Below are positions 7,252-57,604 of a stretch of DNA of 64,000 nucleotides, in pieces (the stretch's first letter is position 1; every line of letters starts with the position of its first letter). Under the pieces are notes generated by a model. That model was given only the letters and a program-made list of their open reading frames with translations. It was not told where the DNA came from and did not search any database. Position numbers and translations under genes: made by a program. Location: assembly GCF_056746865.1 (NCBI RefSeq), contig NZ_CM163382.1; one strand, written 5' to 3'.

Positions 7252-7936
7252 ACAAGTGATGCCGGTTAAGCTGGCGCAGGCGCTGGCGAATCCGTTATTT
7301 CCGGCGCTGGACAGCGCCTTACGTTCAGGCCGCCATATTGGCCTCGACGAACTGGATAATCATGCATTCCTGATGGATTTTCAGGAATATCTGGAAGAGT
7401 TTTACGCGCGTTATAACGTTGAGCTTATTCGTGCACCGGAAGGGTTCTTCTATTTACGCCCACGTTCCACCACTCTTATCCCGCGTTCCGTCTTGTCGGA
7501 ACTGGATATGATGGTCGGGAAAATCCTCTGTTATCTCTATCTCAGCCCGGAACGGCTGGCGAACGAGGGGATTTTCACCCAGCAGGAACTGTACGACGAA
7601 CTGCTCACCCTGGCCGATGAAGCGAAACTGCTGAAACTGGTGAACAACCGTTCAACCGGTTCAGACGTTGACCGCCAGAAGTTGCAGGAAAAAGTACGTT
7701 CTTCGCTCAACCGTCTGCGTCGTTTGGGTATGGTGTGGTTTATGGGCCACGACAGCAGCAAGTTCCGCATTACCGAATCGGTGTTCCGCTTCGGAGCCGA
7801 TGTGCGTGCTGGCGACGATCCCCGTGAAGCACAGCGTCGCCTGATTCGTGATGGCGAAGCAATGCCGATTGAAAATCATCTGCAACTCAACGATGAAACC
7901 GAAGAGAGTCAGCCAGATAGCGGAGAGGAAGAATAA
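7232..7936 (+). CDS. mukE: Chromosome partition protein MukE
   Basis: Track ORF 7205..7936; start placed at the internal Met ([14 protein letters not shown]) giving 234 aa; overlaps the mukF 3' end, with 7205 as the alternative start. Confidence 0.9.
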
Positions 7937-10900
7937 TGATTGAACGCGGTAAATTTCGCTCACTGACGCTGATTAACTGGAACGGCTTTTTTGCCCGAAC
8001 TTTTGACCTCGATGAGCTGGTTACGACGCTCTCCGGCGGTAACGGGGCGGGTAAATCCACCACAATGGCGGCGTTCGTTACGGCGCTGATCCCCGACCTG
8101 ACCCTGCTGCATTTCCGTAACACCACGGAAGCCGGGGCCACCAGCGGTTCGCGCGATAAAGGTCTGCACGGTAAGCTGAAAGCGGGTGTCTGTTATTCGA
8201 TGCTCGACACCATTAACTCGCGCCACCAGCGTGTGGTGGTCGGTGTGCGTCTGCAACAGGTTGCCGGACGCGATCGTAAAGTCGATATCAAACCGTTTGC
8301 CATTCAGGGCCTGCCGATGTCGGTGCTGCCGACGCAGCTGGTGACCGAAACCCTCAACGAACGCCAGGCGCGTGTACTGCCGCTGAACGAGCTGAAAGAC
8401 AAGCTCGAGGCGATGGAAGGCGTGCAGTTTAAGCAGTTCAACTCCATTACCGATTACCACTCGCTGATGTTCGATCTGGGCATCATCGCGCGTCGTCTGC
8501 GCTCAGCGTCTGACCGTAGCAAATTCTATCGTCTGATCGAAGCTTCGCTGTACGGCGGGATCTCCAGCGCCATTACGCGCTCTCTGCGCGACTACCTGTT
8601 GCCGGAAAACAGCGGCGTGCGGAAAGCGTTCCAGGACATGGAAGCGGCGCTGCGCGAAAACCGCATGACGCTGGAAGCGATTCGTGTCACCCAGTCGGAC
8701 CGTGACCTGTTTAAGCATCTGATCAGCGAAGCCACCAACTACGTGGCGGCGGACTACATGCGTCACGCCAACGAGCGCCGTGTCCATCTCGACAAAGCCC
8801 TGGAATTTCGTCGCGAGCTACACACTTCGCGTCAGCAACTGGCGGCTGAGCAGTACAAACACGTCGATATGGCGCGTGAGCTGGCAGAGCACAACGGTGC
8901 CGAAGGCGATCTGGAAGCAGATTATCAGGCGGCCAGCGATCACCTGAACCTGGTGCAAACCGCACTGCGTCAGCAGGAGAAGATCGAACGTTACGAAGCG
9001 GATCTCGATGAGCTGCAGATCCGTCTGGAAGAGCAAAACGAAGTGGTGGCAGAAGCCATCGAACGCCAGGAAGAGAACGAGGCTCGTGCGGAAGCTGCCG
9101 AACTGGAAGTGGACGAGCTGAAAAGCCAGCTTGCTGACTATCAGCAGGCGCTGGACGTCCAGCAAACGCGCGCGATCCAGTATAACCAGGCGGTTGCTGC
9201 GCTTAATCGTGCCAAAGAACTGTGCCATCTGCCGGACTTAACCGCCGACAGCGCCGCCGAATGGCTGGAAACCTTCCAGGCGAAAGAGCTGGAAGCGACT
9301 GAAAAAATGCTCTCTCTTGAGCAGAAAATGAGCATGGCGCAAACCGCGCACAGCCAGTTTGAGCAGGCTTATCAGCTGGTGGTGGCAATCAACGGCCCGC
9401 TGGCGCGTAACGAGGCGTGGGATGTCGCTCGCGAACTGCTGCGCGAAGGGGTCGATCAGCGTCACCTGGCAGAGCAGGTTCAACCGTTGCGGATGCGCTT
9501 AAGCGAACTGGAACAGCGTCTGCGCGAGCAGCAAGAAGCCGAACGCCTGCTGGCAGATTTCTGCAAACGTCAGGGCAAGAATTTTGATATTGATGAACTG
9601 GAAGCTCTGCATCAGGAGCTGGAAGCGCGCATTGCCTCTCTTTCCGATAGCGTGTCTAACGCCCGCGAAGAGCGTATGGCACTGCGTCAGGAGCAGGAAC
9701 AGCTGCAGTCTCGCATTCAGAGTTTGATGCAGCGTGCGCCGGTTTGGCTGGCTGCGCAAAACAGTCTCAACCAGTTGAGCGAACAGTGCGGCGAAGAGTT
9801 CTCCTCCAGCCAGGACGTCACCGAATATCTGCAACAGTTGCTGGAGCGTGAGCGCGAGGCGATTGTTGAACGCGATGAAGTAGGCGCGCGCAAAAACGCC
9901 GTCGATGAAGAGATCGAACGTTTAAGCCAGCCAGGTGGTTCTGAAGACCAGCGTTTGAATGCGCTGGCGGAGCGTTTTGGCGGCGTGCTGCTGTCAGAAA
10001 TTTATGACGACGTTAGCCTGGAAGATGCGCCGTACTTCTCGGCGCTGTATGGCCCGTCACGCCACGCCATTGTGGTGCCAGATCTGTCACAGGTAACCGA
10101 ACACCTGGAAGGCTTGACCGATTGCCCGGAAGATCTCTATCTGATCGAAGGGGATCCGCAGTCATTCGATGACAGCGTGTTCAGCGTTGATGAGCTGGAA
10201 AAAGCGGTAGTGGTGAAAATCGCCGATCGTCAGTGGCGTTATTCACGTTTCCCGGAAGTGCCGCTGTTTGGACGCGCGGCGCGCGAAAGCCGCATCGAAA
10301 GCCTCCATGCCGAGCGTGAAGTGCTTTCCGAACGCTTCGCCACGCTCTCCTTTGATGTACAGAAAACCCAGCGTCTGCATCAGGCGTTCAGCCGCTTTAT
10401 CGGTAGTCATCTGGCGGTGGCGTTTGAGTCTGACCCGGAAGCAGAAATCCGTCAACTGAACAGCCGTCGCGTCGAACTGGAGCGGGCGCTGAGTAATCAT
10501 GAAAATGATAACCAGCAGCAGCGTATTCAATTTGAGCAGGCGAAAGAGGGCGTTACGGCGCTGAACCGCATTCTGCCGCGTCTCAACCTGTTGGCTGATG
10601 ACAGCCTGGCAGATCGCGTCGATGAAATCCGCGAACGTCTGGATGAAGCCCAGGAAGCCGCGCGTTTTGTTCAGCAGTTCGGTAATCAACTGGCGAAACT
10701 GGAACCGATCGTTTCGGTATTGCAGAGTGACCCGGAACAGTTCGAACAGTTAAAAGAAGATTACGCGTACTCTCAGCAGATGCAGCGCGATGCCCGTCAG
10801 CAGGCGTTTGCCCTGACGGAAGTGGTGCAGCGTCGTGCGCACTTTAGCTACTCTGACTCTGCAGAAATGCTTAGCGGTAACAGCGATCTCAACGAAAAAC

Positions 10901-12396
10901 TGCGTGAACGTCTGGAACAGGCGGAAGCGGAGCGTACCCGCGCGCGTGAAGCGTTGCGCGGACACGCAGCGCAGTTGAGTCAGTACAACCAGGTGCTGGC
11001 TTCGCTGAAAAGTTCTTACGACACCAAAAAAGAGCTACTCAATGATCTGCAACGTGAATTGCAGGATATCGGCGTGCGAGCTGATAGCGGGGCAGAAGAG
11101 CGGGCGCGTATTCGCCGTGACGAGCTGCACGCGCAACTGAGCAATAACCGTTCACGCCGCAATCAACTGGAAAAAGCGCTTACCTTCTGCGAAGCAGAGA
11201 TGGACAACCTGACCCGCAAACTGCGCAAGCTGGAGCGGGATTACTTTGAGATGCGCGAGCAGGTAGTGACCGCGAAAGCGGGCTGGTGTGCAGTCATGCG
11301 CATGGTGAAAGATAACGGCGTTGAGCGCCGCTTACACCGTCGTGAGCTGGCTTATCTCTCCGCTGATGATTTGCGTTCCATGTCGGATAAGGCGTTAGGT
11401 GCGCTGCGTCTGGCAGTGGCAGATAACGAACATCTGCGCGATGTGCTGCGCATGTCGGAAGATCCAAAACGTCCGGAACGTAAAATTCAGTTCTTCGTGG
11501 CGGTTTATCAGCATCTGCGTGAACGTATTCGTCAGGATATTATTCGTACCGATGATCCGGTGGAAGCTATCGAACAGATGGAGATCGAACTTAGCCGTCT
11601 GACCGAAGAGTTAACCTCCCGTGAACAGAAACTGGCGATCAGTTCCCGCAGCGTGGCGAACATTATTCGCAAAACCATTCAGCGCGAACAGAACCGTATC
11701 CGTATGCTCAACCAGGGTTTGCAGAACGTATCGTTTGGTCAGGTGAACAGCGTACGTCTGAACGTGAACGTGCGTGAAACGCACGCCATGCTGCTGGATG
11801 TGCTCTCTGAACAGCACGAGCAGCATCAGGATCTGTTTAACAGCAACCGTCTGACCTTCTCGGAAGCGCTGGCGAAATTGTATCAACGTCTTAATCCGCA
11901 GATTGATATGGGGCAGCGCACGCCGCAGACCATTGGCGAAGAACTGCTGGATTACCGCAACTATCTGGAAATGGAAGTTGAGGTTAACCGTGGTTCTGAT
12001 GGTTGGCTGCGCGCAGAGTCTGGTGCATTGTCGACCGGTGAGGCGATTGGTACCGGTATGTCGATTCTGGTGATGGTGGTACAAAGCTGGGAAGATGAAT
12101 CTCGCCGCCTGCGCGGTAAAGATATCTCTCCTTGCCGCCTGCTGTTCCTCGATGAAGCCGCGCGACTGGACGCCCGTTCTATCGCCACGCTGTTTGAATT
12201 GTGTGAACGTTTGCAAATGCAGCTCATCATCGCAGCGCCGGAAAATATCAGTCCGGAAAAAGGCACCACCTATAAACTGGTACGTAAAGTCTTCCAGAAT
12301 ACCGAACACGTTCACGTCGTCGGCCTGCGAGGATTTGCGCCGCAACTCCCTGAAACGCTTCCAGGAAGTGACGAAGCGCCTTCCCAGGCGAGTTAA
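7936..12396 (+). CDS. mukB: Chromosome partition protein MukB (SMC-like condensin ATPase)
   Basis: 1486-aa ORF with N-terminal Walker [10 protein letters not shown], long coiled-coil region and C-terminal LLFLDEA motif; start overlaps the mukE stop. Confidence 0.97.
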
Positions 12397-12400
12397 AATG

Positions 12401-12430
12401 AAGGCGGCAGCAATGCCGCCTTTTCTTTTT
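12401..12430 (+). terminator. Rho-independent terminator after mukB
   Basis: Stem aaggcggca / tgccgcctt followed by ttttcttttt immediately after the mukB stop. Confidence 0.7.
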
Positions 12431-12656
12431 CCGAAAACTCCGTTTCTGCACTAAAAAAGTGGCACATTACGGCGCGCTTTTCTTTAAACTTCTTTACATT
12501 AGGTTATGTAAAAACGTATCGGCGTTTATATACTGAAGATAAGCCTGATGAGTAACAGGCTTGCTCGTCATACTTTCGTGAGTATTGGCGTTGTACAGGC
12601 AAGTCGTAAAATAACAGCCTGGCTATTCAGAGTATGATAAAAACAGGGGGCAAGGG

Positions 12657-14504
12657 ATGTTGCTTAATATGATGTGTGGTCGTCGGCTGTCGGCAATCAG
12701 TTTGTGCCTGGCCGTAACATTCGCTCCACTGTTCAATGCGCAGGCCGATGAGCCTGAAGTAATCCCTGGCGACAGCCCGGTGGCTGTCAGTGAACAGGGC
12801 GAGGCACTGCCGCAGGCGCAAGCCACGGCAATAATGGCGGGGATCCAGCCATTGCCTGAAGGTGCGGCAGAAAAAGCCCGCACGCAAATCGAATCTCAAT
12901 TACCCGCAGGTTACAAGCCGGTTTATCTTAACCAGCTTCAACTGTTGTATGCCGCACGCGATATGCAACCCATGTGGGAAAACCGTGATGCTGTTAAAGC
13001 CTTCCAGCAACAGCTGGCAGAGGTGGCGATTGCCGGTTTCCAGCCGCAGTTTAATAAATGGGTAGAGTTACTGACCGATCCTGGTGTTAACGGGATGGCA
13101 CGCGACGTCGTGCTCTCTGATGCGATGATGGGCTATCTCCATTTCATTGCAAATATTCCGGTCAAAGGCACTCGCTGGCTATATAGCAGTAAACCTTATG
13201 CGCTTGCAACGCCGCCGCTTTCGGTGATTAACCAATGGCAGCTGGCGCTGGATAAAGGTCAATTGCCGACGTTTGTTGCAGGACTGGCACCGCAGCATCC
13301 GCAATATGCGGCGATGCATGAATCGTTACTGGCCTTACTCAGTGACACCAAACCGTGGCCTCAACTGACCGGTAAAGCAACGTTGCGCCCAGGGCAGTGG
13401 AGTAACGACGTAGCGGCGTTGCGCGAAATATTGCAACGCACAGGCATGTTGGACGGGGGGCCGAAAATTACTCTACCTGGCGATGACACGCCAACTGACA
13501 CGGTAGTCAGCCCATCCGCTGTTACTGTTGAAACAGCAGAAACTAAGCCGATGGACAAGCAAACGACGTCTCGTAGTAAACCTGCGCCTGCCGTTCGTGC
13601 CGCCTACGATAATGAACTGGTGGAAGCCGTTAAACGTTTTCAGGCATGGCAAGGATTGGGAGCAGATGGCGCTATTGGCCCGGCAACGCGTGACTGGTTA
13701 AACGTAACGCCCGCCCAGCGTGCTGGCGTGTTGGCACTCAACATCCAGCGATTGCGCTTGCTGCCAACAGAGCTTTCTACCGGGATCATGGTTAACATTC
13801 CAGCCTATTCGCTGGTCTACTATCAGAACGGCAATCAGGTACTGGATTCGCGAGTCATTGTCGGTCGCCCCGATCGCAAAACGCCGATGATGAGCAGTGC
13901 ACTTAACAACGTAGTGGTAAACCCGCCGTGGAACGTACCACCAACTCTGGCACGCAAAGATATTCTGCCGAAAGTGCGCAACGATCCGGGATACCTCGAA
14001 AGCCATGGCTATACGGTGATGCGCGGCTGGAACAGCAGAGAAGCGATTGACCCATGGCAGGTTGACTGGTCTACAATCACGGCCTCGAATTTACCGTTCC
14101 GCTTCCAGCAGGCTCCAGGCCCACGGAACTCGCTGGGGCGCTATAAATTCAATATGCCGAGTTCAGAGGCCATTTATTTGCATGACACGCCGAACCACAA
14201 TCTGTTCAAGCGTGATACACGCGCATTGAGCTCAGGCTGTGTACGAGTGAATAAAGCTTCCGATCTGGCGAATATGCTGTTGCAGGATGCAGGATGGAAT
14301 GACAAACGTATTTCTGATGCGCTGAAGCAAGGCGATACGCGTTACGTCAATATTCGGCAGTCGATTCCGGTGAATCTCTACTACCTGACGGCCTTTGTTG
14401 GTGCAGATGGTCGTACCCAGTATCGTACAGATATTTACAATTATGATCTACCTGCGCGATCCAGCTCGCAAATCGTATCGAAAGCGGAACAATTAATCAG
14501 GTAA
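12657..14504 (+). CDS. ldtD: L,D-transpeptidase LdtD (YcbB)
   Basis: 615-aa ORF with signal peptide and the YkuD-type catalytic region (HDTPNHNLF...SSGCVRV). Confidence 0.9.
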
Positions 14505-14684
14505 ATGAAGCAGTTCGGGGAAATCAGTTGTCGTAATAATTAGCATGATCGGGGGCGATTCTCTGCAGCCCCCGTCACTGCTGGGGTTGAGTCATCTTGA
14601 CGTCTGCTTTACGGGCGGTTAAGGTGCCTCTTGTGCGCCAGAAGTGCATATAAACGATAACATTGACCTGTAGACTTGATTATC

Positions 14685-15259: not shown

Positions 15260-15907
15260 ATGAACTATCGTATTATTCCGGTCACCGCATTCTCCCAGAA
15301 CTGTTCATTGATCTGGTGTGAACAAACCCGCTTGGCCGCACTGGTCGATCCTGGCGGCGATGCGGAAAAAATCAAACAGGAAGTTGACGCCAGCGGCCTG
15401 ACACTGATGCAGATCCTGCTGACGCATGGTCATCTGGACCACGTTGGTGCAGCGGCGGAACTGGCGCAACATTACGGCGTGCCGGTTTTTGGCCCGGAAA
15501 AAGAAGATGAGTTCTGGCTGCAAGGCTTGCCTGCGCAAAGTCGTATGTTTGGTCTGGAAGAGTGCCAGCCGCTGACGCCGGATCGTTGGCTGAACGAAGG
15601 CGATACCATCAGCATAGGGAATGTGGCTTTACAGGTGTTACATTGCCCTGGGCATACGCCGGGTCATGTCGTGTTTTTTGATGATCGGGCAAAGCTGCTG
15701 ATTTCTGGCGACGTTATTTTCAAAGGCGGAGTAGGGCGCAGTGACTTCCCGCGTGGCGATCATAATCAACTGATTTCTTCAATCAAAGATAAGTTGCTGC
15801 CACTGGGGGATGACGTGACATTTATTCCGGGTCACGGACCATTATCCACACTTGGTTATGAGCGTCTGCATAATCCCTTCCTGCAAGACGAAATGCCCGT
15901 CTGGTAA
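15260..15907 (+). CDS. gloC: Metallo-beta-lactamase-fold hydrolase (glyoxalase II-like) YcbL/GloC
   Basis: 215-aa ORF with the HxHxDH metal-binding motif (THGHLDHVG). Confidence 0.85.
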
Positions 15908-15914
15908 AGGCGCA

Positions 15915-15952
15915 TAAAAAAGCCCGCTTTTTAAGCGGGCTTCATTGTTTTT
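15915..15952. terminator. Bidirectional rho-independent terminator between gloC and aspC
   Basis: Stem agcccgctt / aagcgggct flanked by an A-run upstream and a T-run downstream, between two convergent genes. Confidence 0.7.
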
Positions 15953-18569: not shown

Positions 18570-18640
18570 TGAAAGTGCTACATAGATAAAGATTTGGTTT
18601 CAAAAAGAAAAAATATGTAACTAAAAGTAAAAATTAAGGA
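18570..18640 (-). promoter_or_regulatory. ompF promoter-proximal OmpR-binding region (F1-F3 sites)
   Basis: AT-rich block about 150-220 bp upstream of the ompF start matching the OmpR-box region as I recall it; coordinates approximate. Confidence 0.55.
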
Positions 18641-18981
18641 ACTTTGTGAACACCGTCATATTTCCATAGAGGCGTGATGATATTTACAGCAATTTTTATC
18701 TATTTATATGATTTCCTTATATTTAAATTAACTAAACGGAAATTTTGTTTCTGATGGAAACTTTATCGACCTGGCACAAAATCCTCTTTCAGACATCCAG
18801 AATGCCAAAAAATAGTATGAAAATTGTGCTATCAGCTAAGAAAAAACTAATCCGCAATAAGAATGCGGGTTATTTTTTGTGCGTAAATGTTGCAATGTAA
18901 TATTCCGTAACAGGATGATCGTTATGGCGGGGTTGCAAATAGATTGCTTGACTTAACAAACAGATAACTTGACAGAAAGGA

Positions 18982-42558: not shown

Positions 42559-44319
42559 TCAGTTCGGAATAAACCAGTTCAGCCAACGTAATGGCCATGG
42601 AAAACGGTGACGTCCTTCCTGTTGCGATGCTTGCGCGATACGTTCCTGGATGGTTTGCATCAGCGTCGTTTGGCCTTCGCCATCCCACACCAGATTTAAT
42701 AATAACGGCAGTGCGTCAGTCACATCGTCTACTGCCCAGATGGTGAATTTGCCTTCTTCTACCGCTTTCACCAGTTCACTGTGAAGACTTAAATGGCGAA
42801 TGTTAGCAGTGGGGATAATGACACCTTGTTTCCCAGTTAACTCACGTTGCTGGCAAATAGCAAAGAAGCCTTCGATTTTCTCATTTAAACCACCGACCGG
42901 CTGGGCACGACCGAACTGATCGACTGAACCTGTGATAGCGATACTCTGATTCACCGGCACATCGGCGAGGGCGCTTATCAGGGCGCAGAGTTCAGCCATC
43001 GAGGCACTATCGCCATCCACTTCACTGTATGACTGCTCAAATGTCAGCGATGCTGAGAAGGGGATCTGTTGCTCAAGCTGTAGTTCCGACATCAGGAACG
43101 CCTGCATGATCATCATCCCTTTCGCATGGATATTGCCGCCAAGCTCCGCTTTGCGTTCGATGTCGGTGAATTCACCATCGCCAATATGCACAACGCAGCT
43201 AATGCGAGAAGGTTCGCCAAAAGCGCGTGGATGACCCGGAAATTCAATGACCGAAAGGGCGTTAATTTGCCCGATGCGTTCGCCTTCGGTTTCAATCAGG
43301 ATTTGCTCCTGAAGAATCTCATCCTGCATGCGTTCAGCGAGGAAACCTTCGCGCCATTCACGCTGCTGTAGCATTAAGTTTAGCTGCTCGCCGGAGAAGG
43401 TGTCGCCATCACACAGGGAGGCGACCTCTTTACACTGGCGGAGGATCCACTGCGGGCTAAGCGGAAGTGTTTCTTGTTCACCGGTGTAGCGTGCTGCTTC
43501 GCGGATAAGCACCGGCCAGGCATCCGCTCCCGGTGCAGGTAAGTGATTATGTCTGGCGGTAAATGTCACCCAGCGACACCACTGGCTTACTGACTCCGCA
43601 TCGACAATCTGCAGAGTATCTTCAAATTCGCTATAAATAGCCTGCTCTGAAAGCTCTGGCTCCATCTCCTGGAAATCAGCCAATGATTCGCGTTCGCCTA
43701 CCAGAATGACTTTCAGCTTCAATGGCATCGAAGGCACAGAGACGGGGAGAGGGCGCGACTCATCAAACGCAACCCAGTCAAAACGCCCGCGGTTAACGAT
43801 ATTTTTCAGCCGCATCCACAGCAGAGGTTGCGCCAGCAGTGTACGCAAAGAGATGATGAGAATACCGCCATTTGCCTGATGCACCAGACCTGGCTGCAGG
43901 GTAATGTCGCCATTAAACTGGCGCAGGCAGCCAAAGAGTTGCTCCGCTTCTACCCAGTCGGCAGCGACAACTTGCGTTAAAGTCGCAAAATTATCATCTG
44001 CACTCACTGTGTTACGTAAGCGGATGGTGTGCCCGGAAACCTCATAGTGACCGCCCACCAGTTGGCCTGCATCGCTTTGTAGCGCACGCGCGGCATCGGC
44101 AATAAGATTCAGATACTCAGACTCTTCCGGGGCCTTCGCCAGCATAAAAGAGGAGGATGCTCGCGTATGCAGCAACTGCTCCAGCGCAAATTGCAGTCGC
44201 GGTTGAGTATCACTGAATAAAGGATCGTTTTCGTCAATCAAATGTGGCTGAGCAAATATTTCCTGATAGCTATCGGTATCAGGAACCAGGTCACGCCATG
44301 CAAGTTTCGTAATGGTCAA
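42559..44319 (-). CDS. ycbZ: Lon-like protease homolog YcbZ
   Basis: 586-aa ORF at the conserved position between fabA and matP, with a C-terminal Lon-protease-like region. Confidence 0.85.
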
Positions 44320-57437: not shown

Positions 57438-57604
57438 TGAGTCACTCTCTATGACAGATGTAATTAATTAAGCAGCATAATGATAATGCGTAAGGGCACC
57501 CAGAAGTTTTACCCATCTTTACGCATTTGATCTGGAACAGGTTTAACAGCGGATTATCAGGTCATTAAGCAAATATAACGCCCTGAGAATTTCGACAGGC
57601 AAAA

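Follow-up and report, generated by a model that had tools for sequence, protein, structure and literature searches.

Forty-one published CpxR sites have been compiled and every one of them is a direct repeat (PMC9600279, Table S1), the characteristic feature being two GTAAA-like pentamers with a spacer of 5 nt, sometimes 6 nt. The standard CpxR-activated promoter is that of cpxP, where the box (GTAAAACAACGTAAA) is a direct repeat on the strand opposite to that of the gene and so appears as TTTAC-N5-TTTAC on the coding strand. In K-12 the cpxP arrangement is TTTAC-gttgt-TTTAC, then 30 nt, then a -10-like TAAACT, and it is from this -10 only that the cpxP start is inferred. A second listed cpxP site lies over the -35, and the regulatory region is common with the divergent cpxRA operon. 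Two other sites that merit comparison, those of ompC (GTAAAGAAGGGTAAA) and yccA (GTAAAGATGGGTAAA), belong to the De Wulf 2002 set and are given here as PMC9600279 Table S1 lists them.

Is ldtD (ycbB) one of the genes so regulated? That it is Cpx-induced, as the original prediction had it, is borne out by several lines of published work. RegulonDB includes it in the CpxR regulon, it has been termed a CpxR-induced gene, the defects that come with Cpx over-activation are suppressed when it is deleted, and on Cpx activation the YcbB protein goes up 4.7-fold. An ldtD promoter-lacZ fusion shows up to 8-fold induction on LptC depletion, an outer-membrane stress, and in a ΔrpoS background ldtD expression is unaffected. 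Bernal-Cabas et al. 2015 reportedly saw CpxR~P bind DNA upstream of ldtD, ygaU and slt, by EMSA and without a footprint. In a CpxR ChIP-exo study under ethanol stress, ldtD was missing both from the direct targets and from that study's CpxR iModulon; peaks in that experiment lay 5' of no more than 16 operons, and its direct targets also lacked degP, spy and dsbA. Reviews and Cpx papers confirm the regulation of ldtD and give no site, a Reg-seq preprint makes no mention of the gene, and neither a footprint nor a point mutation of the bases considered below was found in the literature. The Cpx regulation of ldtD is, then, ordinary and essentially known, and what is refined here is the operator assignment. 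As the 3-3 peptidoglycan cross-links made by LdtD serve PBP bypass and the survival of outer-membrane assembly defects in E. coli, the bases that couple its gene to stress matter for work on beta-lactam tolerance.

A direct repeat in the mukB–ldtD intergenic region

The window, i.e. the whole 64-kb stretch of DNA analysed, contains the E. coli mukB–ldtD region, gene identities being by megablast. The mukB ORF occupies 7936-12396, and the coding sequence of the regulated gene, ldtD, is on the plus strand at 12657..14504 (615 aa, with its ATG at 12657). The intergenic region of 260 nt is AT-rich and differs by one base from that of K-12 MG1655, window position p corresponding to NC_000913.3 position p + 968,390. 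Just after mukB a terminator scan finds an intrinsic terminator (12400..12433, plus strand), a GC-rich hairpin and then a T run, whose hairpin is kept in relatives; it separates ldtD from mukFEB transcription. An Rfam search of 12380-12720 gave no match below E = 0.07 and none near the gathering score.

A search for the direct repeat GTAAA-N5-GTAAA, with one mismatch allowed, yields a candidate CpxR operator on the bottom strand, GTAAA-GAAGT-TTAAA (GTAAAGAAGTTTAAA, 12483..12497), which matches at 9/10 positions. Read from 12497→12483, it has the two GTAAA-like pentamers at the 5-nt spacing of the published sites. However appealing such a match may look, box-like matches with one mismatch or fewer occur in 6% of shuffles of this AT-rich intergenic region, so that the case rests on conservation and context and not on the match alone.

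For scoring, a log-odds matrix was built from the PMC9600279 Table S1 sites minus the ldtD entry and those for yccA and ompF1, two sites of the window itself. The box scores 14.93 bits with it, the third highest value among 127,972 window positions on both strands. It would rank about 17th of the 41 known sites, whose range is 2.4-19.6 bits, and so falls at about the median of sites with experimental support. The known yccA, ompF and fabA sites were recovered by the same scan and thereby serve as internal positive controls: the perfect yccA site (57508-57522, minus strand), the two ompF sites (18617-18631 and 18897-18911, plus strand, the first of them one base away from the K-12 sequence as listed) and the fabA site (42748-42762, minus strand) are all published, and all are among the top matches. 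The box was already in a 2022 genome-wide matrix screen, as an untested matrix match only, the supplement giving its 15-mer a score of 14.79 at ldtD position -160 and the overlapping ATAACCTAATGTAAA a score of 7.25 (PMC9600279). By eye the box fits none of the consensus sequences for ArcA, PhoP, the marbox or the UP element.

How does the ldtD box compare with the described ones? Its orientation is like that at cpxP, and on the coding strand TTTAA-acttc-TTTAC is followed by 31 nt and then TATACT, so that orientation and spacing are essentially the same at the two promoters, both of which are induced by Cpx activation. The ldtD box is a less complete match, 9/10 and 14.9 bits as against the 10/10 and 19.6 bits of the cpxP box. 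With the ompC site it is identical at 13/15 positions, the GAAG of the spacer included. The second half-sites of ompC and yccA start with the consensus G, whereas that of ldtD starts with T and in its orthologues with T, C or A, the consensus G being found in none of them. The yccA box differs further in being on its own gene's strand and nearer to the start codon, the distance from its centre to the ATG being 78 nt.

The promoter and its start

Cappable-seq plus-strand starts relevant to ldtD are, in U00096.2 coordinates, 980154 (score 80.0), 980121 (5.1) and 980232 (4.0). Once shifted by 777 bp, taken as the offset from one MG1655 sequence version to the other, these positions convert to window 12541 for the main start and to 12508 and 12619 for the minor ones. 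In SMRT-Cappable-seq the starts for b0925 are 980930 and 980897, apparently in version-3 zero-based coordinates, and the offset is thereby supported. With two 5'-end datasets putting the main ldtD start at the A at 12541 (plus strand), the box spans -58 to -44 and is centred at -51; for the Cpx dependence of the gene downstream of it we rely on the literature. As the score of 80 was recorded without any known Cpx induction, the promoter has basal activity.

The -10 hexamer, TATACT (12529..12534, plus strand, -12 to -7), is 7 nt upstream of the mapped start and so is properly spaced from the 5' triphosphate end for a sigma-70 promoter; in four Citrobacter loci (L003, L009, L023 and L031) it is TATAAT. 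The putative -35 region is weak. It is ATGTAA (12506..12511, plus strand, -35 to -30), with 3/6 of TTGACA and a 17-bp spacer; its counterpart in relatives is TAGGCA, one base upstream, with a 4/6 match and an 18-bp spacer. It is because of this weak -35 that TATACT was missed by a consensus promoter scan. Activator-dependent promoters typically combine, as here, a good -10 and a poor -35 with a response-regulator site immediately upstream. The promoters that the scan did propose, with -10 sequences at 12607-12612 and 12633-12638, were rejected as the main promoter: both are absent in the genera with short leaders, and that at 12607-12612 agrees only with a minor start, of score 4.0 vs 80. That minor start, 12619, fits the scan-predicted TTGGCG-N16-TAAAAT.

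Taking the evidence together, we put at about three in four the probability that the bottom-strand direct repeat 12497→12483 is the functional CpxR box of the ldtD promoter, centred at -51. CpxR would then, we infer, occupy exactly 12483-12497, and 12541 would be the Cpx-responsive start. On envelope stress, phosphorylated CpxR would bind the direct repeat as a head-to-tail dimer, in the manner of OmpR/PhoB-family regulators, and the bound protein would recruit RNA polymerase to a sigma-70 promoter that is otherwise limited by its -35. Transcription of ldtD would rise, possibly with read-through into mepK-gloC. What the present analysis contributes is a well-supported assignment of the operator to a conserved box that spans -58 to -44 from a mapped start.

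Conservation and the inverted repeat

The species-representative genomes with LdtD provided, in one scan, 34 loci, with the promoter region included in 32. These and the window give 33 sequences, 32 of them distinct, from Escherichia, Salmonella, Citrobacter, Enterobacter, Klebsiella indica, Atlantibacter, Intestinirhabdus and one further Enterobacteriaceae genome. The box scores 12.8-15.3 bits in every one of the 33 orthologous promoters, which represent seven genera, and in all 33 loci its distance from TATACT is ungapped and constant. Mean column conservation is 0.96 in the box vs 0.58 in the upstream flank. When 15 diverse upstream regions were aligned by MAFFT without anchors (mean column identity 44%), just three islands proved invariant across the 15 taxa. 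The first is 12481-12499, the box and two bases either side of it; the second, 12525-12534 together with 12541-12542, is the -10 and the start site; and the third is the Shine-Dalgarno/ATG.

A conserved block at -60 to -40, with 73% A+T, is where an A/T-rich UP element would usually be, contacted by the alpha subunits of RNA polymerase, and its CpxR-like pentamers would then be coincidental. We find this scarcely credible. The invariant C at 12482, 12492 and 12497 (G on the bottom strand) fits base-specific recognition, the match to the UP-element consensus is poor by inspection, and the block, which lies 5' of a Cpx-induced gene, has a CpxR matrix score on a par with those of accepted sites.

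Is CpxR the only regulator to be thought of? Overlapping the box there is a weaker bottom-strand match, ATAAC-CTAAT-GTAAA (12493..12507, 6.9-7.2 bits, and 7.25 in the PMC9600279 supplement), through which the array would gain a third in-phase pentamer, at -38 to -34. The tandem pentamers ATAAC-N5-GTAAA-N5-TTAAA might accordingly be bound by OmpR or RstA, instead of CpxR or together with it. The 12493-12507 match agrees with the CpxR site ompF1 (GTAACCAAAAGTAAA) at 12/15 positions. That site is presumably the reverse complement of the OmpR F1 site, from which it follows that CpxR and OmpR recognise very similar DNA. For RstA, TACATTAGGTTATG matches 9/12 specified positions of the consensus box TACATNTNGTTACA. 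However, the third pentamer behaves quite differently from the CpxR-type pair, which is kept in all orthologues: the additional match has about 7 bits in roughly half of them and less than 3 bits in the rest, where it is lost. Moreover, the documented inducers of ldtD are Cpx-type stresses, and in papers that name both ldtD and OmpR the titles and opening parts of abstracts point to no OmpR regulation of ldtD. A role for OmpR or RstA at these pentamers is thus very doubtful, and CpxR at the direct repeat remains the preferred reading.

The original prediction had singled out not this repeat but an inverted one, TTTAC and GTAAA about 10 bp apart and about 150 bp 5' of ldtD, and had placed it at 12493-12513. 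The pair is indeed in the sequence, as TTTAC-N10-GTAAA; the start of the element was given correctly and its end one base too far, the 20-mer TTTACATTAGGTTATGTAAA being at 12493-12512, or 164-145 nt 5' of the ldtD ATG. It is also longer than was noted, as it is a perfect palindrome with 7-nt arms, TTTACAT-TAGGTT-ATGTAAA (no strand is assigned), the arms at 12493-12499 and 12506-12512 being separated by the spacer TAGGTT. TTTAC-N10-GTAAA has 1 occurrence in the 64-kb window vs 0.02 expected. When the intergenic region is shuffled with dinucleotides preserved, though, a perfect inverted repeat with arms of 7 bp or more and a 0-12 nt spacer turns up in 20% of cases, and 4.6% of the shuffles have two exact GTAAA pentamers, in whatever orientation, at a spacing of 3-12 nt. 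Since shuffling often yields similar repeats, the inverted repeat, though real, is not statistically remarkable alone.

The left arm, TTTACAT, is invariant across orthologues. Its pentamer is the first, promoter-proximal pentamer of the bottom-strand box, and the partner pentamer, TTAAA, is 10 bp further upstream, beyond the coordinates originally proposed. Of the 32 distinct orthologous promoters, 6 carry GTAAA in the right arm and almost all the rest carry GCAAA. The full arm ATGTAAA, and with it the full palindrome, is seen in no more than E. coli and two closely related Escherichia loci, L001 and L028; in E. albertii the arm is AGGTAAA and in most other genera AGGCAAA, which leaves 5/7 symmetry. 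A palindromic operator for a symmetric dimeric regulator is not borne out, the symmetry across orthologues being lost in the right arm. Taken to open a top-strand box (GTAAAAACGTATCGG), the right pentamer gives 4.4-4.6 bits, and that reading was rejected. The right pentamer, 12508-12512, is at -33 to -29 and so inside the -35 region. The minor start at 12508 (score 5.1) is the G of this pentamer.

Could the inverted pair TTTAC-N10-GTAAA itself be the CpxR operator, with one monomer per arm, head-to-head? Neither of its pentamers has a mismatch, and the window contains no second such pair. The right-arm position is kept as G(T/C)AAA in most relatives, and in the footprinted boxes of fabA and fabB GCAAA is accepted as a half-site. 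Nevertheless we regard such an operator as unlikely. The inverted pair lacks the direct-repeat arrangement that all 41 compiled CpxR sites share, and the usual arrangement is recovered when the left pentamer is taken with TTAAA on its other side, the better partner for it. The right pentamer is low-scoring and, as GTAAA, poorly conserved, the palindrome being confined to E. coli, L001 and L028; what conservation its position does show is explained by the -35 region in which it lies. An equally good inverted repeat, furthermore, is had in one of five shuffles. The flagged inverted repeat is a by-product, its left arm being half of the CpxR box and its right arm an Escherichia-specific form of the -35. 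The original prediction located the operator correctly, as its element overlaps a very probable one, and described its structure wrongly. In the mechanism favoured above, the right pentamer would be an Escherichia-specific -35 variant that is dispensable for the box.

In Escherichia two substitutions, AGGCAAA→ATGTAAA, made of the -35 region a perfect inverted copy of a CpxR half-site. One hypothetical consequence, to which we give a very slim chance, is a brake: at very high CpxR~P levels, the GTAAA at -33 to -29 might take up a further CpxR~P molecule over the -35, which would set a ceiling on ldtD expression. A ceiling of this sort would be in keeping with the toxicity that LdtD is reported to have when Cpx is over-activated, and this is the only reading that gives the inverted arrangement itself a function.

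The mukB-internal site, the leader and downstream genes

A 'known' ldtD CpxR site, GCAACTCCCTGAAAC, is given in PMC9600279 Table S1, where it is attributed to Bernal-Cabas 2015. It concerns the same gene, regulator and regulatory claim as the box but different DNA, since it lies within the mukB coding sequence (12342..12356, plus strand). At about -199 to -185 it is upstream of the mukB terminator and 141 bp further upstream than the box. Its score of 5.0-5.4 bits places it 39th among the 41 compiled sites, and its homologous 15-mers in 27 loci score from -17 to +5 bits, with a mean of -7.2, and so show no constraint beyond coding.

Might this nonetheless be the functional site, and the intergenic box incidental? 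Besides the listing itself, there is in its favour that the paper credited for it is said to report CpxR~P binding to the ldtD upstream region. That would be a very improbable state of affairs, given a low-scoring and unconserved sequence about 190 bp upstream of the start and beyond the mukB terminator. The loci in which the surroundings have changed also argue against it. In C. sedlakii (L009) there is no upstream match to the mukB C-terminus, and in Salmonella (L004 and L006) and L031 the mukB-ldtD gap is longer, yet in all of these the distance from box to -10 is still the same. GCAACTCCCTGAAAC is probably not a functional ldtD site, and its listing may be a curation error or else a weak site chosen in the original paper. 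If the Table S1 attribution is accurate, the conserved intergenic box is a much better operator candidate. To doubt the compiled mukB-internal site is a correction at the level of curation, not a discovery.

The ldtD mRNA starts directly with a hairpin. In the minimum-free-energy fold it is at 12542..12561 (plus strand), with 12542-12547 paired to 12556-12561, and it has one covarying pair across genera, UA in 12, CG in 6 and UG in 6 sequences. A 5'-terminal stem of this kind could protect against 5'-end-dependent decay. The fold of the leader as a whole is not significant (z = -1.47). Leader length is 116 nt in E. coli vs roughly 45-50 nt in the short-leader genera, of which K. indica and Enterobacter ENT03 are examples. 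In long-leader species CUCGUCAUACU can pair with AGUAUGA just 5' of the Shine-Dalgarno sequence.

The SMRT-Cappable-seq supplement has a read-through unit b0925|b0926|b0927 from the ldtD start, i.e. ldtD-mepK-gloC, from 12541 to about 15900, and so the Cpx-responsive promoter may also drive mepK, annotated in K-12 as a peptidoglycan L,D-endopeptidase. Located 73 nt 5' of mepK is a CpxR-like match whose spacer is 6 nt long, GTAAAGCAGACGTCAA (14597-14612, minus strand); it was scored 15.5 in the PMC9600279 supplement, and its GTAAA half varies among orthologues. The conserved parts near it are TTGACG and GTTAAGGT, which resemble a sigma-70 -35 and -10, and the 14597-14612 match is probably core promoter rather than a CpxR site. 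Two other matches in the window with high CpxR matrix scores are GTAAAGGCGCATAAA (15904-15918, plus strand, 13.2 bits), at the end of gloC (ycbL), and GTAAAGTCGCGCAAA (27887-27901, minus strand, 15.0 bits), which is within the ssuD/ssuC coding region and probably due to chance.
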